A stretch of 64,000 nucleotides of DNA from Blastocatellia bacterium (GCA_963765495.1 CAVXWP010000009.1:832001-896000); one strand, 5' to 3'. Counted from the stretch's first letter, positions 7,112 to 41,432 are shown. Made by a program: numbers and translations. The notes: generated by a model not told the origin, from the letters alone.

Positions 7112-7196
7112 GCCTAACTCGTCATTCCAGCGGACGCGCATGCCAACCGCTCGCGTTCCATCAGCTACCGGCGCGCCGCTGAACTCGTCGTTAGGC
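7112..7196 (+). mobile_element. Integron attC site 1
   Basis: GCCTAAC...GTTAGGC ends; inner TTCCAGCGG/CCGCTGAA pair with one extrahelical base; 85 bp. Confidence 0.9.
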
Positions 7197-7729: not shown

Positions 7730-7921
7730 ATGTGGAATGACCCCATAGTAGAAGAAACCCGTAGAGTACGAGAAGTCTTAGCATCAAAGTTTGACTATGA
7801 TGTTAGACTACTGGGCCAATACTATAGATCTCAACAGATAAACGAAGGGCGGACTATCGTACGCAGGCAACCAAAGGATCGAGCACAAAGAGTGGAAGAA
7901 AGTCCTGTGGTTATGGACCAA

Positions 7922-7927
<6 letters not shown>
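7730..7927 (+). CDS. Small putative antitoxin partner of the PIN toxin
   Basis: MWNDPIVEETRRVRE...FDYD pattern typical of partners of this PIN family; stop codon lies inside the attC R'' box. Confidence 0.75.
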
Positions 7928-8834
<907 letters not shown>

Positions 8835-8874
8835 ATGATCCGAGGAATAAGAAGGACTTTGGTAAACTATTCGC

Positions 8875-9760
8875 ATGACAATCGAACAAATCAACAATCT
8901 CAAACCTGCAAGACTCCGCGCCTTGACCCGCATGACGACAAACGCCCTTCAACAATTGTTGTCTACTACCGTGCCGGTCTTGGTTCATCTCCGTCAACAG
9001 GCCAAACTTCTTCGCCCTGATCGCAAACGCGCTCTCGGTGGCGGTAGAAAACCCAAACTCACTCCTTCTCAGGAGGTCTTGCTCGTTCTCATCTACCTGC
9101 GTCACAACCTCGCTCACGCGCGTTGTCGCAGCCTTGTTTGGTGTTAGCGCCGACACCTCCGAGAATCTCTTTCACGAGATTGTCCCCTTGCTCAGAGAAC
9201 TCTTTCCCTCCAATCGCTTTGAGGCACAGAAGAGGTTTCGAGGTCAGGAACCGAGCCTCAAAATCCAAGAGATTGACCGAATTCTCATCGACAGTTTTGA
9301 GACGCCAATACCCCGCCCCTCCAATTATGAACGTCAAAAACGGGTATATTCTGGTAAAAAGAAATGCCACACGCTCAAGAGCCAAGTAGAGAGTGATCGA
9401 AAGGGAGAAGTGCTGGGTATCAGAGGAGGGCATCGCGGGCCAGCATCGGATAAGCGAGTATATGAAGCCAGTGGAGTGGGGGAGAAATATCGAGAAGCGA
9501 GCAAGCAAGGGGATTTGGGATATCAGGGCACAGAGGGAATCGAAGTACCACACAAGAAGCCGAAAGGAGGTGAGCTAAGTGATGATGAGCGAGAGGAGAA
9601 TCGAGCGAAGGCGAGTGTGAGGGTACAGGTAGAACACGGCATAAGAAGAGTGAAAGGATTCAAGATCATGAGAGAGAAGTATCGGCTGGCAATGGGGTTG
9701 TTCCCGATGGTAGCGTCGGCAGTAGTCGGATTGGTACATCTCAACCGAATCCTTATGTAA
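8875..9760 (+). pseudogene. IS5-superfamily (DDE_Tnp_4 / HTH_Tnp_4 type) transposase with a frameshift near 9118-9121
   Basis: ORF1 RKRALGGGRKPKL...LIYLRHN continues in another frame as VVAALFGVS...IDSFE..IPRP...YSGKKKCHTLK...DLGYQG...RVQVEHGIRRVK. Confidence 0.8.
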
Positions 9761-9942
9761 GCAGACTGCAAAGGGTGAAGTGTGCCCATCTGACGGTGGG
9801 TCGCCCAAGCACGCTTCATTTTTTATTTATCGGATCATCTAATGAGAGTGTCGACTTGGATGTGGCCTGGCGATTGCACATAATTTGAAGATAGATTGTT
9901 TCCTATAAGTATGGGATTACAATCAAGAGACGGCACGCGGCA

Positions 9943-20181: not shown

Positions 20182-20493
20182 GGCCCAATTTTAGGCGATC
20201 CAATTTTTTGACTCTTCGAGCAATGGACAGAAAAAGAGTAATAAGGTTTATTTGAGCGAATGGAGGAGGGGAACAGGCCACGGATGCCGCGGATCAGGCG
20301 GATTTATGCGGGGCCGATCATATGATGACTAATCCGCGAAAACACGTCTGATCCGCGTTTATCCGTGGCCTATTTCTATTTTGCCTTTCAAAATTTTGGA
20401 AATCTGAATGAGTTTGCCCTACTGCTAACTGTTGCACCGAGTCCAGGTTGCCAGCTTGCGCTACCCGAGCGGCGCAAGATAAACTCTTGCCTT

Positions 20494-21546
20494 ATGGCGA
20501 CAACCGAGAGTGCTCAACTGTACTTCAAGCAAGCCAAAATGATCGGGCCGGTAGTATCGAATCCGCCGGTCTGTTTGTATCTGGAAACAACCAACCGATG
20601 TAATCTGCTCTGCCAGCACTGCCCTCGCACATTTGCTTCGGTCGAGCGCCCGGCCGATCTTTCATTCGAGCAGATGAAGCTGATCGTCGAACAGGTGCCC
20701 AACCTCAAGCAGGCAGTTCTACACGGCATCGGCGAGCCGTTAATCAACAAAGAATTGCCCGCTATGATCAGCTATCTGAAGGAGCGAGGCGTCTATGTTC
20801 TGTTCAATTCCAACGGCACGATGCTCTATCCGCACATTCAGAGACAGTTGATTGACAGCGGTTTGGACGAGTACCGCGTATCGCTCGACGCAGCGGACGC
20901 GAAAACATTCGCAAGGGTTAGGGGGCTTCCCCGTTTCGATCTGATTGTCAAAAACGTGCGCGAGCTTGTTGCGCTGAAGAAGCAACTTGGCATAGAGCAT
21001 CCGCGCCTGTCGCTCTGGCTTGTAGGGATGAAAGAGACGCTCGCCGAGCTTGTGGCCTTTGTCCAGCTTGCCCACGATATGGGCGTAGGCGAAGTCTATT
21101 TGCAGAGGCTGGTTTTCTTTGACGACCAGCAGAACGGGCAAGGGTTTGCCCGACCCGACCAGGCGCTTTTCGGCACGGTTGATGAGGAAGAGGCGCGATT
21201 GATTGCCGAAGCCCATATGATAGCCGATGAACTGGGGGTGACGTTTCACGCATCGGGGGCGACTACGCCAGAGCAAAGCCTGATGCCCCGCGACGATGAT
21301 CAGCCGTGGAATCTGTGCCGACGCCCCTGGACGTTGATGTACATAACGGCTAACGGCAATGTGCTGCCGTGCTGCATTTCGCCCTTCGCCGAACGCGATT
21401 ACGATTCGCTCATTTTAGGCAATGCGTTCGAGCAGCCTCTGATGGACATATGGAATGAACATCTCTATCAGAAATTCAGAAACGATCTTCAAAGCGATCA
21501 CCCGCACAGCGCGTGCAAAAACTGTGGCGTGCGTTGGAGCCTGTAG
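20494..21546 (+). CDS. Radical SAM protein with SPASM/twitch domain
   Basis: CNLLCQHC, GIGEPL, CRRPW...NGNVLPCC...CKNC. Confidence 0.9.
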   Translation: MATTESAQLYFKQAKMIGPVVSNPPVCLYLETTNRCNLLCQHCPRTFASVERPADLSFEQMKLIVEQVPNLKQAVLHGIGEPLINKELPAMISYLKERGVYVLFNSNGTMLYPHIQRQLIDSGLDEYRVSLDAADAKTFARVRGLPRFDLIVKNVRELVALKKQLGIEHPRLSLWLVGMKETLAELVAFVQLAHDMGVGEVYLQRLVFFDDQQNGQGFARPDQALFGTVDEEEARLIAEAHMIADELGVTFHASGATTPEQSLMPRDDDQPWNLCRRPWTLMYITANGNVLPCCISPFAERDYDSLILGNAFEQPLMDIWNEHLYQKFRNDLQSDHPHSACKNCGVRWSL

Positions 21547-28196: not shown

Positions 28197-28395
28197 AACC
28201 GTGGCAACTGAATTTTAGTTTTCCTCAAACGGATTAGCTCATATTAGGTCAGATCCGCGTATATCCGCCGCATCCGCGTCCGTCCCGGCCTATTAACCCC
28301 GCCTTTCATTCAAATCCATCTGCACCGATCTCTCGGGGTATGATTTAGAGGCTGTGACCGCAAATATGCAAAACTCGTCTAAGGGGGAGCATGCT

Positions 28396-28551
28396 CAGGG
28401 CTATTGCAAAGTAGCTTGACATGTATGGTAGGGGCAGGGCTTGTCCCTGCCCGGATCGCCCGAAGGGCGATGACTGTCATCGCGCTTACGCGCGATTCGG
28501 GCAGCCACAAGGGCTGCCCCTACATTTTTGCTCGACTTTGCAATAGCCCTG
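28396..28551. mobile_element. 156-bp MITE enclosing a GTAG-type REP doublet
   Basis: 17-bp TIR CAGGGCTATTGCAAAGT; 10-bp TSD GGAGCATGCT (28386-28395 and 28552-28561); inner GTAGGGGCAGGGCTTGTCCCTGCCC...GGGCAGCCACAAGGGCTGCCCCTAC. Confidence 0.9.
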
Positions 28552-28643
28552 GGAGCATGCTAAAGCAGATTTCCCCATGTCTGCTCGCTCCATTACAATA
28601 CAAACAGGACGCTGTGAGCAGATGTCGGTAGCAATCGAGGATT

Positions 28644-32516: not shown

Positions 32517-32556
32517 AAAAAGGCCACCGAGATATTTCGGTGGCCTTTGTTGTTTT
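32517..32556. terminator. Bidirectional terminator
   Basis: AAAAAGGCCACCGA-GATATT-TCGGTGGCCTTTGTTGTTTT. Confidence 0.85.
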
Positions 32557-32572: not shown

Positions 32573-34699
32573 TTAGTCGCCAAAACCGGCTCTCTCCTCC
32601 TGCGCCTGCCCCTTCCCCTTGCTTCCCATCTGCACCAGCTTCCCTTCCACCTTCGGCCCTACTCCCAACTGTACCAACTTCGCCTCCGGCTCCCCGCTCT
32701 CTTTCAATACGTGCTGCCGGTACAACTTCGCCATCCTCAAGTTCTCCGCTTCGCTCAACTTCGCTGCCCTCGCCCTCTGCTTCTCTTCCCTCGCCGTCTT
32801 CGCTATCCCTAACTCGTCCAGGTCGTGTTGCACTTCCCTCGTGATTATCTCTTCCTTCAACACCAGATTGTGCTCTACACTGTTTAACTCTACTGCTCTC
32901 CCTCCCGCAAATATCTCGTGCCTCCCGTACTCCTCATACCACTTCGTCAAACTCGCCGTCATGTGCATCTTCTCTACTATGTTCCTCCACCCTATCCCCG
33001 TGTTGTATGCGCAGAAACTTATCTCCCCTTCCTGCGTCGCATACGGGATTATGCACCTCTCCGTCCGCCGAAAATCATAGTTGAACAAATCCTGAAACCA
33101 CATCCCCGCTATGAACAGGAAGTTCCACCTGTCTGCTCTCCTCTTCTCTATGTCTTCCTTCGTCCGGTCTCCTGAAACCTTCCCATAATTCTTCCCCGTC
33201 GCTCCCCACGTCTTGTCAAACTTCGTCAACAAATCCTTTAACTTGAAATGCGTCGGCGACTGGTACGGGTCGTAGTTCTTCATCAAGGCCAGGGCCATCC
33301 CCACTATCGACAGCCACTTCCCTCTCCCAGCATCGTTGACCTTCATCACATCCTTCGCCAACTGCTCCCCGTCCAAAAACGCCGTCACTGGCACCGACTC
33401 CTTCGTCTCCTTGTCCACCATGATCGCCATACCTACTCCACAATTCGGATGGCATCCACAACTCAACTGCCCCCAGTCCGCCTCTGGCCCGTGCACCAGA
33501 TCCGACCAGTCTGAAAATGTGCTCATAAACGAGATCGGAAACCAGTCTCTCACTGGCTCTCCCAGCCCCGTCTGTTTCTTCACATCGTGCGCCAGGTGCG
33601 ACAGCGTGTATCTCTGCGCCATTCTCCGCTCGTCCGTGATCGCCTCATCTCGCCCCGTGAACGAAACGGGCTGGAACGACAAAAACGAGGTCTTCTTTGG
33701 ATTATCTAGCGCAAACTGGATTATCCGCCCCACCTGCTCGTTGTTTATCCCGTTTATGATCGTTGTCACTGGCACAATCTCCACTCCCGCGCTGTGGAGG
33801 TTCTCGATTGCTCGCAACTTCACATCAAAGAGGTTCCCGACTTTTCTGTGCTCGTTTGCAGCGTTGCCGATCCCATCGAATTGCAGATACGCATATCTCA
33901 GCCCCGCTTCTGCCGCTTGACGCGCAAACTCGGCGCTCTTTGCAAACTCTATCCCGTTTGTAGCCGCCTGCACGCTGTTGTAGCCAACCTTGCGTGAATA
34001 CCTGACGGCATCCAAAAAGTAGGGCGAAAGCGTTGGCTCCCCGCCCGAAAACTGAACGCTCAACTGGCGGCGGGGCTTGATAGAAATCGCGTTGTCGAGC
34101 ATGGTCTTGATGTCATCCCAGGTGAGTTCGTGAACAAAGCCAACCTGATTGGCATCCATAAAACAGGGGTCGCACATCATGTTGCAGCGATTTGTGAGAT
34201 CTATCGTAAGGACAGAGCCGCGCCCGTATTTTATGGTAGAAGAGCCGTGATCGTGAAGGGTCTCGTCGTTGTGAGCGCGGATGTCAGAGCCAGGAAAGAC
34301 CTGTTCAAGGTGTTTGAAGAAATCGGCGTCGATAGCCATGATGTCTTCGAAGTGGCCGTGTTTAGGGCAATCCTTGACCATGAGGATATTGCCGTCGCGT
34401 TCGATGATCTGGGCCTTGATTTCGCCGATGCGTTCATTTTTGAGGATATCGACGGGAAGAATGCCGTCGAGGACCTGCTGGCGGATTTCGGGAACGCAGC
34501 GAGGGCAGAGGGAATCGGTAGTGCGAGGCCAGCCGAGAGGAGGCTTGACCTTCTGATAGGATTTCAAGAGAGGCTTATCGCTCCAGGCAGGAGTGAAGGA
34601 GGGATTCTGTTTGATGCGATTGAATCTCTCGAACAGGGCCCAGGAGCCGCGAGCGGCCAAGGTCAATCCTTTTTCAACATACTTTATTGGCTTGTGCAT
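32573..34699 (-). CDS. tes: Radical SAM protein, tetraether synthase (Tes/GDGT-MAS) family homolog
   Basis: SLCPRC...KDCPKHG metal site, TNRCNMMCDPCF, QFSGGEPT, YLQFDG, CHPNCG, MWFQD..NYDFRR..RCII, SFCAYN. Confidence 0.82.
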   Translation of the reverse strand: MHKPIKYVEKGLTLAARGSWALFERFNRIKQNPSFTPAWSDKPLLKSYQKVKPPLGWPRTTDSLCPRCVPEIRQQVLDGILPVDILKNERIGEIKAQIIERDGNILMVKDCPKHGHFEDIMAIDADFFKHLEQVFPGSDIRAHNDETLHDHGSSTIKYGRGSVLTIDLTNRCNMMCDPCFMDANQVGFVHELTWDDIKTMLDNAISIKPRRQLSVQFSGGEPTLSPYFLDAVRYSRKVGYNSVQAATNGIEFAKSAEFARQAAEAGLRYAYLQFDGIGNAANEHRKVGNLFDVKLRAIENLHSAGVEIVPVTTIINGINNEQVGRIIQFALDNPKKTSFLSFQPVSFTGRDEAITDERRMAQRYTLSHLAHDVKKQTGLGEPVRDWFPISFMSTFSDWSDLVHGPEADWGQLSCGCHPNCGVGMAIMVDKETKESVPVTAFLDGEQLAKDVMKVNDAGRGKWLSIVGMALALMKNYDPYQSPTHFKLKDLLTKFDKTWGATGKNYGKVSGDRTKEDIEKRRADRWNFLFIAGMWFQDLFNYDFRRTERCIIPYATQEGEISFCAYNTGIGWRNIVEKMHMTASLTKWYEEYGRHEIFAGGRAVELNSVEHNLVLKEEIITREVQHDLDELGIAKTAREEKQRARAAKLSEAENLRMAKLYRQHVLKESGEPEAKLVQLGVGPKVEGKLVQMGSKGKGQAQEERAGFGD

Positions 34700-34861
34700 A
34701 ACTATCTCCTAGTAATGTGCGAAGCCTCAAAAACATATTTCCAACTTCGCTGTTGCTGTCAGAATTTAAGCACAGCGGATCAACCGGATAACCGCTTCCC
34801 GATTGCGCCAGTGCCTGGCAAATACGTTCGTCCCCGAATCGAAAAAAGCTCCGGCGAAAGC

Positions 34862-35137
34862 TCAAGCCAGATATTCGGCAAGCTCCCGCTCAAGTTCTTC
34901 CGGGCCGACCTGCTCACCCCGATTAAGCCGGTCCAGAGTGCGATCAATTACGGCCTTCGCTTCATCCTTGTGGTCCTCACTCAAGAACCCATCGAGGAAA
35001 TGATCCCCCGCGAGGGCGTGGTTGATCTCCGATTCCTTGTTGTGCTCGTCCAACTCCGTGAAGTAGACAACCTTGTATTTGCGGTTGTAGCTGGCTTCAC
35101 GATAAACCTCAAACATTATCTTTTCCGAATTTCGCAT
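34862..35137 (-). CDS. Small acidic hypothetical protein within the pls/tes cluster
   Basis: Co-oriented ORF with plausible composition. Confidence 0.7.
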   Translation of the reverse strand: MRNSEKIMFEVYREASYNRKYKVVYFTELDEHNKESEINHALAGDHFLDGFLSEDHKDEAKAVIDRTLDRLNRGEQVGPEELERELAEYLA

Positions 35138-35146
35138 ACTCAAAAC

Positions 35147-35241
35147 GTGACCAGTGACGCGTGATTCGTGAAAAGGGAATCAACTGATGACGATTCGGGT
35201 CCCTGAAAATCACGCATCACGCGTCACTGGTCACGAATCAC
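35147..35241. repeat. Heptamer-tandem inverted repeat element (GTGA-type)
   Basis: GTGACCAGTGACGCGTGATTCGTGA ... TCACGCATCACGCGTCACTGGTCACGAATCAC. Confidence 0.75.
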
Positions 35242-35245
35242 TTTC

Positions 35246-38200
35246 CTAGTCTCCCGAAGCGCCTATCTGATACTGTGGCACATTGCCTGAAAGCACGGGC
35301 AGCGAAATAATTGAACCTCGCCGCGAACTGGCTTTCTCTTCTGCCTCGGCCTGCAATCGCAGAAGACGCTCGAATTCGGCAAGCTTCTCTTCCAGCGTCC
35401 TTACCTTGCCTTTGTTCTTGATCATGTCTTCACGATAGCGCTTGAGGAAATAACCTATCGTCTCGACTCTGATCTTGATAGAGCCGGTCGGTTTATTTTC
35501 GTCTATGTCCTTGAAGCAGAAGTAAGGCGTACCCGCATTCTGAACGGTCTCTTCGACCACGGTGTAAATCGGCGCGTCGTGGCCGCATTTGAACGACGAA
35601 AGCTCCAGCGCTACTAGATTCGGATGGCGCGCCGTGTATTTCGCGGCCCAGATCTTGCGGCTGGTGTTTTCCGAATAGGAATTCTTCCACGCATCCTGAA
35701 TGTCCATCGGATGCTTGATTATTCCCGCCCGCACTTCGTCGCCAAACAACCGCCACAGTATGTCGTCATCTATCGGCAGCGAGTCCATAGTAAAGACCGG
35801 GTATCCAAGCTTCTGGAACTCTTCAAGTATCTCGTGATTGATGCCCGGATCGTTATGATAAGGACGACCAAGCATCACGACTCCAAGCCCGTCTTCGGCT
35901 TCGAGTTTTTCGAGCACCTCGCGGCCCGCGCCGCGCAGCGTCACATTATAGAGAGTATCGAGCGCCTTGAATCCTTCTTCGATGGCCCGATGATTCTCCT
36001 CCTGCGTGAGACCTAGCAGGTCTTTGAATACTTCATACATCTGCTTTTCAAGCAGTGGCGGCTCATCGAGATTCAGAATCGGGTCAAGGTATCTGGTGCC
36101 CAATTGCGCAAACAGATCGCCCTCTTTGATGAATGCCGCCTTGACCGCTTCGGGCGTTGCCGTGACGGTAGGGCATGCGCGGCTGCCCTGCGTGTTGACA
36201 AGATCGGTGGGCAGAGCGTCTATCATCGGGAAGAAGATAAAATCGAGCGGCTTCTTTTTGTGATGAACCTGGAGCAGGTTGTGAACGTGCGGTATGCCCA
36301 CCTTTGACGGGAAGCACGGATCGATGGCCCCGCGTTTCGCGCCTTCTTTGTAAAGCTGCTCGGTTGTGTAATCGGAATAAACCAGATTCTGCGGTTTGAC
36401 TCCGAGGCTTTCAAAGTAAGCCGAAACAAACGGATTGATCGAATACTGATTAAGAACGCGCGGAATGCCTATGCGCAGGGACTCGCGTTTCTTGAGCAAT
36501 TCGTTGCGCTGTTTCTGCGACTTTGTGAAAGCATATTTATGAGCCGGGTCCGCCACCTTCTGCGGATTGTAGCTGCGCCATGCGGCTTTGGCCGCGATCT
36601 CGACAAAGTTCGGATTTGCGGACTTCATCGAATCGAGCCCCTTCTTGATGACCCGCATATCGGCCACGTCTTCGACCAGCCCCTTCTCGCAAGAGTTGCC
36701 TACGATAAGGCGCTGCACGCCCGGCAGGATCGGAATCTTCGATTTGCGCGGCGGTTCGGTGCTCTCTTTATCCGACACCTTCACGTCAATAAAGGTGCGC
36801 AGACATTTGTTCTTGCAGAAGTAACACCTGGTGTCCTCATTGCGATGCGTGACATAGGTGATATCCTCGACGCTCTTCAATCCGATAAAGCTTGTCCGGC
36901 GACCGTTTTCCCAGAGTCTTACCGCTTCGATTGCAGCCCCAATCGCGCCCGATTCGCCGCAGTGCTCGTGGACTATGATTCGCGGCTGGATATCTTTGCC
37001 CTTAAAGCGCGACTCGATAAAATCAACCTGAGACTTGACCGCCGCGAGGTTGTGCTGAGTGCCGCCCTGCAAGACGAAGTTTGTACCGAGCGCGGCGATG
37101 TTTGGTATCTGCGAAACATAGAGCCAGATGTTTTTCGGAAGCACGGCGGCAAGACCCGCCATGATCTCTTCGGGCTTCCAGCCCTGTCGCTGAAAGTCAA
37201 CAATGTCGGATTGCATAAAGACCGCGCATCCGTAACCGAACGTGGGCATCGCCTGCGCGCTGAAGGCTATGTCGGCGTACTGCTCTACCTGCATGCCAAA
37301 ACCTTCGGCCGTCGATTGCAGGAAGTAGCCGTTTCCAGCCGAGCATTGCGTGTTCAATTTGAAGTCTTTGACCTGACGATTCTTCAGGATTATCAGCTTG
37401 ATGTCCTGTCCGCCCACGTCAACGATCACATCCACATCTTTGTAAAACTGCAAAGCGGATTCGGTATGCGCGACCGTCTCGACTAAAGCGACATCGGCGT
37501 TGAGCGTGTCTCTCAAAATGTCTTTTGCGTATCCGGTAGTGCCTACGCCGAGTACGTTGAGAGTTGCGCCCTGATCGGTTACCTGCTTTTCGAGTTTGCC
37601 GAAGACTTCCATGGTGTCTTCTATCGGGTTGCCTTTTGACAGTTGATAAGTCTTCACAAGAATCTTGCGGTCCTTATCGAGCAGCACGGCTTTCGTAGAA
37701 GTCGAGCCGCCGTCCAGACCTATGAAACCTTCAACGACCTGCCCCGGTTCAAAAGTGGCGGGCGTGAACTTCTTGCGCTTGTATCTCTCCTTGAATTCCA
37801 GCAGATCCTTTTCGTCTTCCGACAGTCCCTTTCCTCCGGCCTTCTTCTTCTCTTCGATGCGACCGTAGGTGATGTAATACTCAAGATCGGCAGTGCCGCG
37901 ATAAACGCCTATACTATCGTCTTCGGACTTGCCGAATTCGACAGCGCCGAGTGCCGCGAAGTACTGCGCGTTTTCCGGCACTTTTATCAGGTCTTTCGGG
38001 TCAACCCCTTCGGGCAGCGGATAGTTGCGCTCTTCCCACACCTTCGGGATATTGGACTTCCAGCCTTCGACCATGCCCCGGATGTATGTATTGGGACCGC
38101 CAAGCAGCAAAACGTGCGGGCGCAGGGTGTTGCCTCGCGTAAGCACGGCGAGGTTCTGGCCTATGATCGCTTCAAACAGCGAGGCCATAAGCTCAGAAGG

Positions 38201-38782
38201 CGGCACGCCCATTTTCTGAAGCGAGTTGATGTCGGTTTCGGCAAACACGCCGCACTTGCCCGCTACCGGATGGAGCTTTATATCGTAGTAGCCCATGTCG
38301 CAGAGCTTGTCGGGCGGGATGCGGAGTTTGGCGTTGATCTTATCGATGACCGCGCCGGTTCCGCCCGCGCATTTGTCATTCATCGAAGGGATTTTTTTCT
38401 TCTTGCCGGTTTCCGGGTCTTCCTTGAATATGATGATCTTGGCGTCCTGACCGCCAAGTTCGATGACCGAACCGGCTTCGGGGTAAAGTTTTTCGACCGC
38501 AAGCGATACGGCGTTGACCTCCTGCACAAACTTGGCCCCGATCATGGTCGCAACGTTTCCGCCTCCCGACCCTGTGATGAATATCCTCACGTTTTCTTTG
38601 GGAATCGGGAAATCGGCTTCGATGCGCTTGAGGAATTCCAGGCATTTTTCGGGCTGTTTGGTATCGTGACGCTGATAATCCTGCCATAGGATTTCGTCTT
38701 TTACGGGGTCTACAACTACCGCCTTGACGGTCGTCGAACCAACATCCAAACCTATGTATAGTTTTTCGTAGTCTTGACTCAT
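35246..38782 (-). CDS. plsA: PlsA/Ger-like protein: two BadF/BadG/BcrA/BcrD activase domains plus a reductase/dehydratase-like domain
   Basis: GLDVGSTTVK...ELGGQDAK...MNDKCAGGTG; GLDGGSTSTK...DVGGQDIK...LNTQCSAGNG; CFPSK, GRPYH, SFKCGHD. Confidence 0.8.
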   Translation of the reverse strand: MSQDYEKLYIGLDVGSTTVKAVVVDPVKDEILWQDYQRHDTKQPEKCLEFLKRIEADFPIPKENVRIFITGSGGGNVATMIGAKFVQEVNAVSLAVEKLYPEAGSVIELGGQDAKIIIFKEDPETGKKKKIPSMNDKCAGGTGAVIDKINAKLRIPPDKLCDMGYYDIKLHPVAGKCGVFAETDINSLQKMGVPPSELMASLFEAIIGQNLAVLTRGNTLRPHVLLLGGPNTYIRGMVEGWKSNIPKVWEERNYPLPEGVDPKDLIKVPENAQYFAALGAVEFGKSEDDSIGVYRGTADLEYYITYGRIEEKKKAGGKGLSEDEKDLLEFKERYKRKKFTPATFEPGQVVEGFIGLDGGSTSTKAVLLDKDRKILVKTYQLSKGNPIEDTMEVFGKLEKQVTDQGATLNVLGVGTTGYAKDILRDTLNADVALVETVAHTESALQFYKDVDVIVDVGGQDIKLIILKNRQVKDFKLNTQCSAGNGYFLQSTAEGFGMQVEQYADIAFSAQAMPTFGYGCAVFMQSDIVDFQRQGWKPEEIMAGLAAVLPKNIWLYVSQIPNIAALGTNFVLQGGTQHNLAAVKSQVDFIESRFKGKDIQPRIIVHEHCGESGAIGAAIEAVRLWENGRRTSFIGLKSVEDITYVTHRNEDTRCYFCKNKCLRTFIDVKVSDKESTEPPRKSKIPILPGVQRLIVGNSCEKGLVEDVADMRVIKKGLDSMKSANPNFVEIAAKAAWRSYNPQKVADPAHKYAFTKSQKQRNELLKKRESLRIGIPRVLNQYSINPFVSAYFESLGVKPQNLVYSDYTTEQLYKEGAKRGAIDPCFPSKVGIPHVHNLLQVHHKKKPLDFIFFPMIDALPTDLVNTQGSRACPTVTATPEAVKAAFIKEGDLFAQLGTRYLDPILNLDEPPLLEKQMYEVFKDLLGLTQEENHRAIEEGFKALDTLYNVTLRGAGREVLEKLEAEDGLGVVMLGRPYHNDPGINHEILEEFQKLGYPVFTMDSLPIDDDILWRLFGDEVRAGIIKHPMDIQDAWKNSYSENTSRKIWAAKYTARHPNLVALELSSFKCGHDAPIYTVVEETVQNAGTPYFCFKDIDENKPTGSIKIRVETIGYFLKRYREDMIKNKGKVRTLEEKLAEFERLLRLQAEAEEKASSRRGSIISLPVLSGNVPQYQIGASGD

Positions 38783-38867
38783 CGTCTACTCCAACTCTTT
38801 CTTTTCGTCGTTCATTGGCCGGTGGCCAGTCGTTATTCACAACCGGCCACCGAACACTGACCACTGC

Positions 38868-40670
38868 TTAATCGGCGGCGTAGCTGGATGCGCGTTTGCC
38901 TTTATCTTTCGCCATCAATTCGGAAACGTGCATGACAAAGTTGGCCGCCGAGCCGATCACACCCTTGTGGTGCGGCACATGGTAGAGGCCGCTTTGAAGC
39001 TCGGGGTGTTCATCAGCATAGGCGCGCACCTCGTCGAGCGTGAGGCCGGTCTGCTCAAGTATGCGGGCCATCTCCTGTTTGGCCTTCACCTTAGCTTCGC
39101 CCAGAGCCATCTGCACGCGGCTGTGCGCATTGATCTCGCCCTCGCCCGATGTCTCGATTGGCAGGTAGATCATGTCTTTATACTGATTGACGACCGCCGA
39201 TTGAGCGCCGTCTGATTGCGTGGAAGGCATACAGCCGAACGGCTTGAGCGACAGGACCATATGAGCGAGGTCTTTGTTGGAGTAGTAAATATTCTTTGCG
39301 ACTTCGAGGTGTCCTTCGCCGCCCGCCGCCCGCGAATTGTAGTAAGGATGAGCCGCTCGCTGAAGTTCGTACTGATCTACAAGCTCGTGCGGCAGGTTAT
39401 TGAGCGCCTCGCGCAGGCGATTCCACTCGCGTTTGAATATCGCTTCGGCAAGCGTAAGCTGGGTTGTCGCCTTGCGGACCTTCATCTCGTTCTTGAGTCG
39501 CTTGTCGATTCTCCAGGCCGGCGGCATCGCTTCATCTTCGCTTACGCCCTTGCGGTCAACCTTCTGCTGCTTGGCCTGATGAATCAGGTACATAATCCAC
39601 GTTCCGATTGGCTCGACTATGACCTGCGCGCCTTCGCGTTCGAGGAACTTGAACATGTTGAAGTTGCCGTCGCCTTCTGTGGTCTGAGCCCAGAATTCGC
39701 CCGTGACCTTGACGATGGGCTTGACGCGGGTGCGGTCTACCTTGACGGTTGCAAGCCGGTCGCCCACGGCCTTGAAGGCCGAGGTGTATTCATCGCCGAA
39801 CAACTGGTCTACGAATTTGCCAATGTACTCGGCCGTGCCGCCGACCTTTGGCAGGTTCTTGAGGAAGCCGCCCGCTTTGCCCTCAAGCGTAAACGAACGA
39901 TGCTTGCGATAGACTTCGCGCAGAAGTTCGAGCGACTCTTCCATAGCGGTGTTGGTATCGCCCTCGCTCAACTCGTAGGGTCGGATTTGATAGCAGGCAT
40001 CGCCGATCAGATCGCCCATGTTCAGCGCGTTCAGGATCGCGAGGAAGAAGTCTACGTTTAGCTCAAGCCCGGCTTCGGCCTCGGCCTGATTCAATCCGCC
40101 GGATTGCTGAAACAGCATTACGCGGAATCCCTCGAAGCCGGAATTGCGAAGCGCCAGCCGGTATTCGCTCTCATACATCCCAAAGCGGCACGGACCGCAA
40201 GCGCCCGCCGTGAAGAAGACATAGTTGTCTATAATATCCTGGCGAGACAGGCCCTGCTGTTCGAGCGATTGAAGATACTGCACAAGATTTCCGACCGTGA
40301 AATAGGTGGGATTGCACTGGCCGTTGTTGCCGTATTCTTTGCCCAACTGGAAAGCAGCTACGTTGGGAGTGGGCAGATACTGACATTTGTAGCCGAGCCC
40401 TTCGAGCGCACCCTGTATCAATCGCTCGTGCCTCCAGGTCAATCCGCCGAACAGGAGCGTCGTATAGGCTCGTTGCTCCTTCGTAAAAGTGCGCTCGACC
40501 GGCTTTGCGAAGTGTTCAACGCTCTTTTCCTCGATGCCCAGTTCCTGCAAAAGTCTCAATCTCTCCTGTGCCAGCTTCTTTTGAATCGTTTCTTCTTTGG
40601 ACGAGATTTGAACCAGTGATTGCAAAGACTCCGGCTGCGCGCCAGACTGCCTTTCCGTACTTGCGCTCAT
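38868..40670 (-). CDS. plsR: PlsR-like 2-hydroxyacyl-CoA dehydratase family protein
   Basis: GKEYGNNGQCNP, CGPCRFGMY, VKVTGEF, GGEG, KPFGCMP. Confidence 0.75.
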   Translation of the reverse strand: MSASTERQSGAQPESLQSLVQISSKEETIQKKLAQERLRLLQELGIEEKSVEHFAKPVERTFTKEQRAYTTLLFGGLTWRHERLIQGALEGLGYKCQYLPTPNVAAFQLGKEYGNNGQCNPTYFTVGNLVQYLQSLEQQGLSRQDIIDNYVFFTAGACGPCRFGMYESEYRLALRNSGFEGFRVMLFQQSGGLNQAEAEAGLELNVDFFLAILNALNMGDLIGDACYQIRPYELSEGDTNTAMEESLELLREVYRKHRSFTLEGKAGGFLKNLPKVGGTAEYIGKFVDQLFGDEYTSAFKAVGDRLATVKVDRTRVKPIVKVTGEFWAQTTEGDGNFNMFKFLEREGAQVIVEPIGTWIMYLIHQAKQQKVDRKGVSEDEAMPPAWRIDKRLKNEMKVRKATTQLTLAEAIFKREWNRLREALNNLPHELVDQYELQRAAHPYYNSRAAGGEGHLEVAKNIYYSNKDLAHMVLSLKPFGCMPSTQSDGAQSAVVNQYKDMIYLPIETSGEGEINAHSRVQMALGEAKVKAKQEMARILEQTGLTLDEVRAYADEHPELQSGLYHVPHHKGVIGSAANFVMHVSELMAKDKGKRASSYAAD

Positions 40671-41432
40671 AGATTTCCTCCTTAACTTTCTAGGTGCCTT
40701 TCCTTAGCAATTAAAAAAACGTCTGCCAGTGTGATTTGGAGAGTGGCTATTACGAACGGCTCCGGCCAGCTCAATTGATGAGCGGTCGCGCTGCCAATGA
40801 TTGCCGGACCCCCTGTCATATTCTTCTTGCTATCGTTTCTTACCATTCGCCGATCATACTAATCAGGCTTTGGGACGAACATTACTGCAAATAGCGTCCG
40901 TCAGGTGAAATGCTTGCGAATTATACAGATGTGAGAAAAAAATCCGTCGGTTTACAGTGGCAAGTTGCGCGCCACAATTCCTAAGAGAATATTCCTGTTG
41001 CCGACGATCATCCCTGAAAGGCGTTTCTCTAATTATTACTGCAATTAGCCATCTGCAAAAGAGATTCACAAATAAAACGCCTGACCCGATCAGGGAACGC
41101 TGTGCCTCCAAATGACCCATGCGCTTTTAGAGCCCTCTTGAAGGCGTCAGTTTGACCCGACATCCTTTTAAGGTCTTTCGTGGCCTTAAAGCGGCGTGTC
41201 CTATTGACTCATAGCAAGCAATTACAGCATTTACGAGCTGCCAATTGGCTTTCGGCAACAGGCCAATAGAATCCAAAAACCCTGAATTACGTCTGATACG
41301 TGATGCGTGATATGTGATTTAGCAAGCCTTCAAGTCCGCTTAAATCTGCGGCCCCTCCGGCGGTCACGCATCAAGAATCACGCATCCGAGGCAGCCGTTT
41401 CCTCTACCGAGCAACCCCTTGTTCATCGATAT

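Follow-up and report, generated by a model that had tools for sequence, protein, structure and literature searches.

A four-gene cluster of a Blastocatellia genome that sets a candidate split PlsA/PlsR (Ger)-type reductase beside a Tes-like radical SAM gene

We examined a 64,000-nt stretch of a Blastocatellia bacterium genome (G000:C9:832001-896000, from an assembly of 7.3 Mb in 17 contigs; "the window" below means this whole stretch) in which four genes, g1, g2, g3 and tesL, stand in a row. Alignments and a predicted fold suggest that g1 and g2 are the two parts of a PlsA/PlsR (Ger)-type reductase, and tesL encodes a protein of the radical SAM (S-adenosylmethionine) kind that we place next to the tetraether lipid synthase Tes (GDGT-MAS). 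Co-expression of such an ether-forming lipid reductase with a chain-coupling enzyme would yield ether-bearing membrane-spanning lipids, and our judgement of this reading is evenly divided between acceptance and doubt. brGDGTs (branched glycerol dialkyl glycerol tetraethers) rank among the most used terrestrial proxies for past temperature and pH, and their biosynthetic enzymes and producers are unproven. In the natural cluster described here, a dedicated gene copy would link a Tes-like enzyme with a PlsAR/Ger-type reductase, where earlier reports gave co-occurrence only, and the four-gene unit offers a compact, testable candidate construct for bacterial ether-linked membrane-spanning lipids. 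Statements credited to published papers below hold for the accessible portions of those papers.

Arrangement of the cluster

40671-40862, minus strand: 5' untranslated/promoter region before g1; its ribosome-binding site reads AAGGAGG
38868-40670, minus strand: g1, 600 aa, candidate PlsR-equivalent ("Red2") catalytic subunit, no Pfam family
35246-38782, minus strand: g2, 1178 aa, predicted PlsA/Ger-type protein with two activase domains and DUF2229 ("BBD")
34862-35137, minus strand: g3, 91 aa from the ATG at 35137, conserved acidic orphan; the open reading frame (ORF) runs to 35143 with a TTG start
32573-34699, minus strand: tesL, 708 aa, Tes/GDGT-MAS-like radical SAM enzyme, operon copy
32519-32548, minus strand: intrinsic terminator hairpin, palindromic, also facing a convergent plus-strand gene

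The four co-oriented ORFs lie at 32573-40670 on the minus strand and end in one intrinsic terminator, as an earlier sequence-only reading of this DNA had described them; the terminator is a G+C-rich hairpin of 9-13 bp (32548-32519 as read on the minus strand) followed by TTTTT, 25 nt past the tesL stop codon. The intergenic gaps g1-g2, g2-g3 and g3-tesL measure 85, 108 and 162 nt, sequences resembling ribosome-binding sites precede g1 (AGGAGG), g2 (GGAG) and tesL (AGGAG), and a terminator scan listed no minus-strand terminator-like site in the three gaps. The cluster is a probable operon. Upstream of g1, nothing that could serve as a regulator site was conserved across nine relatives apart from the ribosome-binding site. 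The sole sequencing run found to contain the stretch was a soil metagenome, and close homologues of g1 and g3 carry National Center for Biotechnology Information (NCBI) names such as "Blastocatellia bacterium" and "Pyrinomonadaceae bacterium"; we take Blastocatellia to be acidobacterial subdivision 4 (SD4).

A retained second copy of tesL

The G000 genome holds a second tesL on another contig (C14:103590-105716), whose protein is identical to that of the operon copy. The two genes are 98.75% identical over 2165 nt (window 32574-34733); before the start codon the similarity is lost within some 35 nt, at the 3' end it goes no further than the stop codon, and the flanks are unrelated. There were 18 coding differences, one in the stop codon and 17 in third positions, all of the latter synonymous and lying within nt 498-1125, so that the first 497 nt and the last ~1000 nt are identical. 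This pattern fits gene conversion between paralogues combined with strong purifying selection, or it may represent a recent and precise duplication. Two tesL copies were also seen in G004 (80.5% aa and 74% nt identity) and, as partial genes, in G018 (85.5% nt identity). A housekeeping-type tesL was copied, repeatedly or long ago, behind g1-g2-g3 and was kept there. The operon tesL looks like a captured duplicate and therefore argues for co-expression; its retention is the strongest evidence here arguing that both predicted activities are wanted together.

The adjacency of g3 and tesL could also come from a mis-join of the assembly at the near-identical two-copy tesL repeat, and the contigs of relatives often do break inside tesL. 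The same g3-tesL junction occurs, however, in four other genomes of the family (G004, G016, G017 and G018), and a 1503-nt Logan contig made by an independent assembler, though probably derived from the same sample as the assembly, spans 33708-35210, from tesL into g3. A mis-join is hardly credible, and we take g3 and tesL to be truly adjacent.

Whether operon copies of tesL form a paralogous lineage of their own was considered, and the idea was dropped because the family tree is unclear: a clade of ten (support 96) holds copies from nine genomes having g1 and g2, whether as triad or split, but the G017 operon copy lies outside it, and one row was faulty.

Solo tesL genes of Blastocatellia have a neighbour of their own. 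An unclassified radical SAM gene of 341-378 aa (Radical_SAM + Fer4_12; best NCBIfam model far below cut-offs) lies 47-184 nt upstream of solo tesL on the same strand, at L116:8424-9449 (G000:C14), at L122:5704-6840 (G007) and in L001-L003, closest to the window's taxon (3/80 loci, all Blastocatellia-like). It may be a partner of tesL; the operon copy has no such gene upstream.

A predicted split reductase and its small companion

The g2 protein matched BcrAD_BadFG (PF01869) in two stretches (3.7e-68) and DUF2229 (PF09989; 9.7e-47) within one chain, which upholds the earlier description of a double-activase gene, and it is single-copy in the G000 genome. Residues 7-1117 of g2 aligned with residues 14-1030 of P0164 (29% identity, E 2e-138), a one-piece PlsA-type protein of 1487 aa from a Lachnospiraceae metagenome-assembled genome (MAG), itself uncharacterised; residues 57-527 of g1 aligned with residues 1044-1453 of the same protein (23% identity, E 8e-23). 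Jointly, g1 and g2 span P0164 residues 14-1453, so that in the split pair the second reductase module appears shifted upstream.

Searched by itself against Pfam, NCBIfam and the sequences of the Protein Data Bank (PDB), g1 matched nothing, although E values of up to 10 were allowed. Its family is large, with at least 8000 members (8000/8000 scored candidates at E <= 0.001), few of them characterised; the relatives are named "activator of (R)-2-hydroxyglutaryl-CoA dehydratase", "predicted nucleotide-binding protein" or "hypothetical", and the sequence-only reading, which expected automated names to tell little, was right to that extent for this gene. A search for longer proteins with g1 returned 45 matches, including proteins of 1600-1877 aa with a g1-like part together with PF01869 and PF09989. 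In P0124 (1771 aa), the sole fusion checked, the g1-like part is N-terminal (residues 12-574, 51% identity). Fusion of a g1-like part to activase and DUF2229 domains suggests that g1 and g2 act as one unit.

An AlphaFold2 (AF2) model of g1 made from 20 aligned sequences (predicted local distance difference test, pLDDT, 80.8) had as its nearest folds by Foldseek a double-cubane cluster protein (DCCP), (R)-2-hydroxyisocaproyl-CoA dehydratase and catalytic subunits of benzoyl-CoA reductase (BCR). By VIA-align it matched HadC (3o3n_B) at Z 10.4 with 284 residues aligned (model positions 68-528), BzdO/MbdO were also among the best, and the best eight rows all belonged to the superfamily of 2-hydroxyacyl-CoA dehydratases (HAD), BCR and DCCP (Z 8.5-10.4), the next row standing at Z 7.6. 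The model predicts the HAD/BCR/DCCP catalytic fold for g1. Among 20 homologues C119 was invariant and C158, C161 and C480 were at least 90% conserved, cysteines that would fit a predicted Fe-S site. An hhalign comparison of the g1 alignment with a bona fide HGD-D protein gave a probability of 0.2, from a profile polluted by fused rows. The label "dehydratase-like" given to g1 earlier is thereby backed by a remote alignment and a predicted fold, but not by any sequence family match.

Another set of fusions (P0135-P0156, e.g., P0138; 1194-1308 aa) carries a g1-like domain N-terminal to GltD-like NADPH oxidoreductase and 4Fe-4S ferredoxin domains, without activase domains. These fusions point to a redox role of g1, and they hint at an NAD(P)H-driven variant of the reductase family.

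Orthologues of g1 (76-79% identity) lie upstream of g2 in eight relatives. We read g2 as a probable PlsA/Ger-type protein and g1 as its putative PlsR-equivalent module, in line with the homology calls of the sequence-only reading; PlsA and Ger are described as not separable by sequence (AEM 2026 and a 2025 paper), and the "BBD" core as conserved in all alkyl-ether producers (Sahonero-Canavesi 2022). With PlsA/PlsR of Clostridium perfringens and Ger of Thermotoga maritima and Desulfatibacillum alkenivorans the pair has in common two BcrAD_BadFG stretches, DUF2229 and a second HAD-type module, recognised in g1 by alignment and fold. Here that module is a separate gene preceding g2 (and N-terminal in P0124), whereas in the known systems it stands downstream, the order in C. 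perfringens being plsA then plsR (AEM 2025); it also has ~600 aa with no Pfam match, HGD-D included, and a 91-aa orphan follows g2. Because g1 has no Pfam domain, a domain-based screen would list loci of this kind under "BBD only", as was done in a 2026 preprint.

Much of this evidence could also describe a low-potential reductase or dehydratase powered by ATP, akin to BCR, HAD and DCCP and working on a non-lipid substrate, with tesL adjacent by chance or through a shared electron supply. No family model covers g1, its predicted fold is about equally near dehydratases, BCRs and double-cubane proteins, its identity to PlsA-type proteins is low, g1-like domains have other redox partners too, and few of the 8000 or more family members are characterised. 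We nevertheless consider a non-lipid substrate rather improbable: the domain set and order of g1 plus g2 match one-piece PlsA end to end, the PlsA architecture has so far been tied experimentally to lipid ester reduction only, as far as the accessible parts of the sources go (Sahonero-Canavesi 2022; AEM 2025), and the sole recurrent neighbour of the g1-g2-g3 triad is a homologue of a lipid enzyme.

The acidic ORF of about 91 aa that had been noted between g2 and tesL encodes a protein of 91 aa with an isoelectric point (pI) of 4.85 and no cysteine. It has 492 homologues, and because most of them are 91 aa long the ATG at 35137 is likely the start. The best 120 of the 492 are all named "hypothetical protein", the organism, where named, being Blastocatellia, and mean column identity is 74%. 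The AF2 model (pLDDT 89.4) has the order beta-beta-alpha-beta-alpha-alpha. Pfam and PDB family searches gave no match for the g3 sequence family, Foldseek of the model against the PDB found nothing at E <= 0.001, the ESM Atlas returned its own cluster alone, and the best VIA-align row of a wide search (Z 4.0) was within noise. A DegV/FakB fatty-acid-binding fold was set aside, as its few rows at Z 3.4-3.9 are not evidence. In eight of the nine other triad-bearing genomes of the family g3 follows g2, and the ninth contig ends inside g2; because g3 accompanies g1-g2 in every intact family locus, we take it as a putative accessory protein of the reductase, specific to its Blastocatellia version.

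A sister family of Tes

The best PDB sequence match of tesL was GDGT-MAS/Tes 7TOL (E 2.2e-64, residues 93-579), and its best NCBIfam model, "tetraether lipid synthase Tes" (NF045702), gave 318.9 bits against a curated equivalog cut-off of 450 bits. The motifs that had been listed for this gene as CPxC/CPxHG, CHPxC and FCAYN are all in the translation (CPRC, CPKHG, CHPNC and FCAYN), along with the radical SAM motif CNMMCDPC. Homology to Tes/GDGT-MAS, as first proposed, was in this way confirmed.

Of the four metal sites of Tes (Nat Prod Rep 2026 review), one binds a rubredoxin-like Fe through 3 Cys + His, one is the radical SAM cluster, and two are [4Fe-4S] clusters, ligated by 3 Cys + His at the N-terminal site and by 3 Cys + Met at the C-terminal one; the C-terminal cluster is where the first substrate radical is kept. 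In tesL the CxxxCxxC radical SAM site (C172/C176/C179) is kept, as is the rubredoxin-like site (C65/C68/C111/H114), which is conserved in all but one of 21 aligned proteins, and C420, C549 and C563 align with cysteines invariant in the Tes representatives at the catalytic C-terminal cluster. The columns of the N-terminal cluster hold C/C/C in nine and H in 10/10 of the Tes representatives; tesL reads -/H/S/K, and the ligands are missing throughout its clade. In the HMMER alignment HDHGSSTIKY of tesL faces the 7TOL stretch with the N-terminal Cys/His motif. tesL also has N- and C-terminal extensions of ~60 and ~130 residues. Judged from its residues, tesL would retain the parts needed for GDGT-MAS chemistry and would do without one presumed electron-relay cluster.

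From a search of 1.84 billion proteins, 24 full-length representatives were scored with NCBIfam: scores of 463-638 bits put ten above the Tes cut-off, another four were borderline at 414-447, and the group closest to tesL reached 141-299. tesL was aligned with 20 of the 24 (P0297, P0375, P0402 and P0417, with partial or no Tes matches, were left out), and an unrooted IQ-TREE tree was made of 27 rows, being those 21 proteins and six acidobacterial orthologues taken from the genome_contigs loci described below. tesL fell in a clade of 13 (support 100/99), which a 100/100 branch parts, with the borderline P0302, from all Tes representatives; the clade is separated from every representative scoring at least 420 bits, and tesL did not group among those passing the cut-off. 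The sequence-only reading had staked itself on a place within the Tes clade, and there it failed: the score is short of the cut-off, the first CxxxCxxC..H motif is missing and the clade is a separate one. tesL is best regarded as the nearest sister family of Tes, not as Tes proper. The radical SAM core is common to tesL and archaeal Tes/GDGT-MAS, as are the 3Cys+His site of rubredoxin type and three cysteines aligned with the C-terminal cluster; the presumed substrate of tesL differs, a bacterial acyl or alkyl chain instead of phytanyl.

The separate clade, the score below cut-off, the one missing metal site of four, the two extensions, and the pairing of the solo copy in Blastocatellia with another unclassified radical SAM gene would all be consistent with a different radical SAM reaction on a lipid or other hydrophobic substrate, in which no tails are coupled. 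This we think improbable: tesL keeps its radical SAM and rubredoxin-like sites and three cysteines that align with the catalytic C-terminal cluster, the 7TOL alignment covers the whole catalytic core, and tesL occurs in 177 of the 301 genomes sampled, whole families being without it.

Acidobacterial Tes homologues of two grades have been described, those of K. versatilis and S. usitatus (40-42% identity, E 1e-139 to 1e-149) and that of E. aggregans (32% identity, E 4e-61) (Zeng 2022). Going by such scores, tesL resembles the weaker E. aggregans grade, and the S. usitatus and K. versatilis proteins seem closer to the Tes type. Tes was reported in just 3 of 14 Acidobacteria producing iso-diabolic acid (Sahonero-Canavesi 2022), a figure that may be explained by an acidobacterial Tes-like clade failing stringent Tes thresholds.

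In another acidobacterial family, two genomes pair a gene of the tesL type (75-77% identity) with a further member of the Tes family (37% identity), co-oriented and separated by 3.7-6 kb (G258:C14:18261-25458 and G174:C18:53990-63405); the further member is probably of the closer-to-Tes type.

Distribution and linkage

At least 595 of 598 pattern matches in genome_contigs encode tesL relatives. The best 80 (75-82% identity) come, with one exception (a MAG labelled Bordetella), from acidobacterial taxa of several classes; no neighbour recurred in more than nine of these 80 loci, and one locus has a 26%-identical activase. tesL was present in 39 of the 41 genomes of a sample of the class, the two misses (G012 and G016) having contig ends at or just after the gene, and in 177 of 301 evenly drawn Acidobacteriota genomes, a tally that includes the unpublished genomes G062, G086 and G179. 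tesL is concentrated in the classes that are, we presume, those known for iso-diabolic acid. A g1 homologue (E <= 1e-60) was found in 19 of the 301 genomes, 18 of which also have tesL; this co-occurrence is weak evidence because the genomes are related.

Within the family g1-g2-g3 forms a constant core, and g2 orthologues (86-88% identity) were present in 8 of 24 other genomes besides a frameshifted one in G022. In five of the ten triad-bearing genomes tesL directly follows g3 (G000, G004, G016, G017 and G018); the G004 cluster is complete, the contigs of G016 and G018 end inside tesL, and no call on tesL position was made for G012. In G022 tesL lies 2.2 kb upstream of g1. Two genomes from other families of the class (G034 and G038) have g1 and then g2 in two pieces, and neither g3 nor tesL stands with them. 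In the loci of the relatives, nothing corresponds to the genes on either side of the window's cluster, and therefore the cluster moves as a unit.

These distributions suit an arrangement in which tesL is a housekeeping synthase of iso-diabolic acid (ester), g1-g3 make plasmalogen-type or monoalkyl ethers separately, and the extra tesL is a neutral or dosage duplication, so that no tetraether results. In its favour, tesL occurs in those 39 of 41 class genomes irrespective of the triad, both G000 copies encode the same protein, which gives no sign of specialisation, adjacency is seen in only half of the triad-bearing family genomes, and most cultured SD4 strains are reported to have iso-diabolic acid glycerol ethers and no brGDGTs (AEM 2026, accessible part). 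Linkage itself is harder for two separate pathways to account for: tesL is kept directly behind g3 in at least five genera, with copy pairs both old (74% nt) and young (99% nt), which argues for selection on linkage. We rate separate pathways as unlikely, though with a real claim to attention.

In the G022 locus (L114, G022:C18:15000-34000) the orthologues of g1 and g2 fall into many frames interrupted by stop codons, while g3 and tesL are intact. This may represent decay of the reductase, or it could come from an error-prone assembly. Some 3-6 kb upstream of the solo tesL in G007, at L122:1120-4066 (G007:C60), stand a gene of the HGD-D dehydratase type and a pair of genes with one activase domain each, and an activase-like match at L002:4422-5171 is placed like the G007 genes, a second BCR/HAD-type system near tesL.

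Proposed function

In our reading the cluster would remodel membrane glycerolipids under low oxygen, the role of oxygen being presumed. g1 and g2 would form a split, order-permuted PlsA/PlsR (Ger)-type enzyme, the two activase domains of g2 hydrolysing ATP to drive an electron of low potential onto the Fe-S centre of a catalytic core. This core, a heterodimer-like assembly of the g2 DUF2229 domain and g1, both of HAD/BCR type, would act on acyl chains ester-bound to glycerol and, like PlsA/PlsR and Ger, reduce the ester to an ether, vinyl or alkyl, with g3 as an accessory. tesL would abstract hydrogen from two alkyl chains at their terminal carbons and join these tail to tail in the manner of GDGT-MAS, in two rounds of SAM cleavage, the first radical being held on the C-terminal auxiliary cluster. 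The products would be ether-bearing membrane-spanning lipids based on iso-diabolic acid, namely glycerol ethers and possibly branched glycerol trialkyl glycerol tetraethers (brGTGTs) or brGDGTs; coupling of ester lipids before ether formation is now allowed (AEM 2026; FEMS 2026). We infer the substrates, the products, co-transcription and the parts played by oxygen and g3 from homology. That true brGDGT-type tetraethers result is a possible but improbable outcome.

A number of results weigh against coupled ether formation and chain coupling. On the side of the reductase, the identity of g1 and g2 to P0164, itself uncharacterised, is just 23-29%, and this was measured against that protein instead of verified enzymes. 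On the side of tesL, its score is below the Tes cut-off, the N-terminal [4Fe-4S] ligands are missing, its clade has no characterised member, and no bacterial Tes homologue is experimentally confirmed according to the accessible part of a 2025 paper. As to linkage, a homologue of g1, g2 or g3 within 9 kb of tesL was found in 0 of the best 80 loci, tesL is not adjacent to the triad in G005, G007 and G014, and no adjacency was seen outside the family in the 301-genome sample; the synteny across Acidobacteriota that had been put forward as a check is confined to one family, and within it to half of the triad-bearing genomes. Most genomes without the triad have tesL all the same, and therefore g1-g3 are not required for its main task. 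The 162-nt gap before tesL, together with a weak hairpin and T-run seen by eye 3' of g3, may permit separate transcription of tesL. Finally, ethers may come by another route. The accessible part of one source gives no Ger homologue in cultured SD4 strains and favours the elb route there (Sahonero-Canavesi 2022), and about 46 kb before the window (G000:C9:784736-791335) are two fatty-acyl-reductase-like genes (NAD_binding_4; one with HAD and Sterile), a PS_pyruv_trans-like gene and an AMP-binding ligase, a group that may represent an elb-like aerobic ether route or a fatty-alcohol route.

If coupled ether and tail formation is carried to its fullest extent, the cluster would be a minimal module, complete in itself, by which bacteria make membrane-spanning lipids with ether links, the tesL clade without the N-terminal cluster would be the chain-coupling enzyme for iso-diabolic acid and brGDGTs in Acidobacteriota, the "BBD-only" Ger-type proteins of the phylum would work only with g1 (and with g3 in Blastocatellia), and the four genes would suffice to convert iso-C15 diacyl lipids to tetraethers of the brGTGT/brGDGT type. 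Taken as a whole, this extended proposal is doubtful.

Relation to published work

A PlsAR/Ger plus Tes route to brGDGTs is already published as a hypothesis (Halamka 2022; Zeng 2022; FEMS 2026), and the idea of joint ether formation and tail coupling that the sequence-only reading advanced fits it (Halamka 2022; FEMS 2026 citing Chen 2025). PlsAR and Tes homologues were proposed for brGDGTs in Solibacter usitatus (Halamka 2022), Tes and Ger were reported to occur together by Chen 2025, as cited in FEMS 2026, where the pathway is called unverified, and tes co-occurs with ger or elbD in acidobacterial MAGs (2026 preprint). The same two enzyme families appear to be present in the acidobacterium examined here; in contrast to the S. 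usitatus proposal and to Chen 2025, they are physically linked, with a dedicated tesL copy. Mss of Thermotoga and Thermoanaerobacter is a bacterial radical SAM enzyme that couples fatty acyl tails (Sahonero-Canavesi 2022, among other sources); radical SAM tail coupling would be common to it and tesL, and the papers describe Mss as a different radical SAM lineage. In the literature that our search covered, some supplements being beyond reach, there was no mention of physical clustering or a dedicated tesL duplicate, of a Pfam-less upstream reductase subunit or the 91-aa orphan, or of the missing N-terminal cluster in the acidobacterial clade. We propose the cluster as a new arrangement of known enzyme kinds, with its function put forward as a candidate.

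Other features of the window

The surroundings of the cluster are those of an ordinary chromosome, with genes for chorismate synthase, UvrB, QueA, MurJ and Lgt and some insertion sequences. A radical SAM/SPASM gene at 20365-21546 stands beside an FKBP/SnoaL-like gene, with no relation to the cluster seen. Among mobile elements, an IS605 OrfB/TnpB-type gene lies at 471-1706 (OrfB_IS605 plus a Cas12f1-like TNB domain), and a DDE_Tnp_4 insertion sequence of ~1 kb at 8826-9853 has 99% copies on five contigs. The window also holds multi-copy repeats of 144 nt (8564-8707; at least 20 near-identical copies) and 157 nt (28395-28552), an 85-nt repeat at 7112-7196 and 7921-8004 with dozens of copies clustered on C2, and a 299-nt direct repeat of 96% identity at 55753-56051 and 60864-61162.

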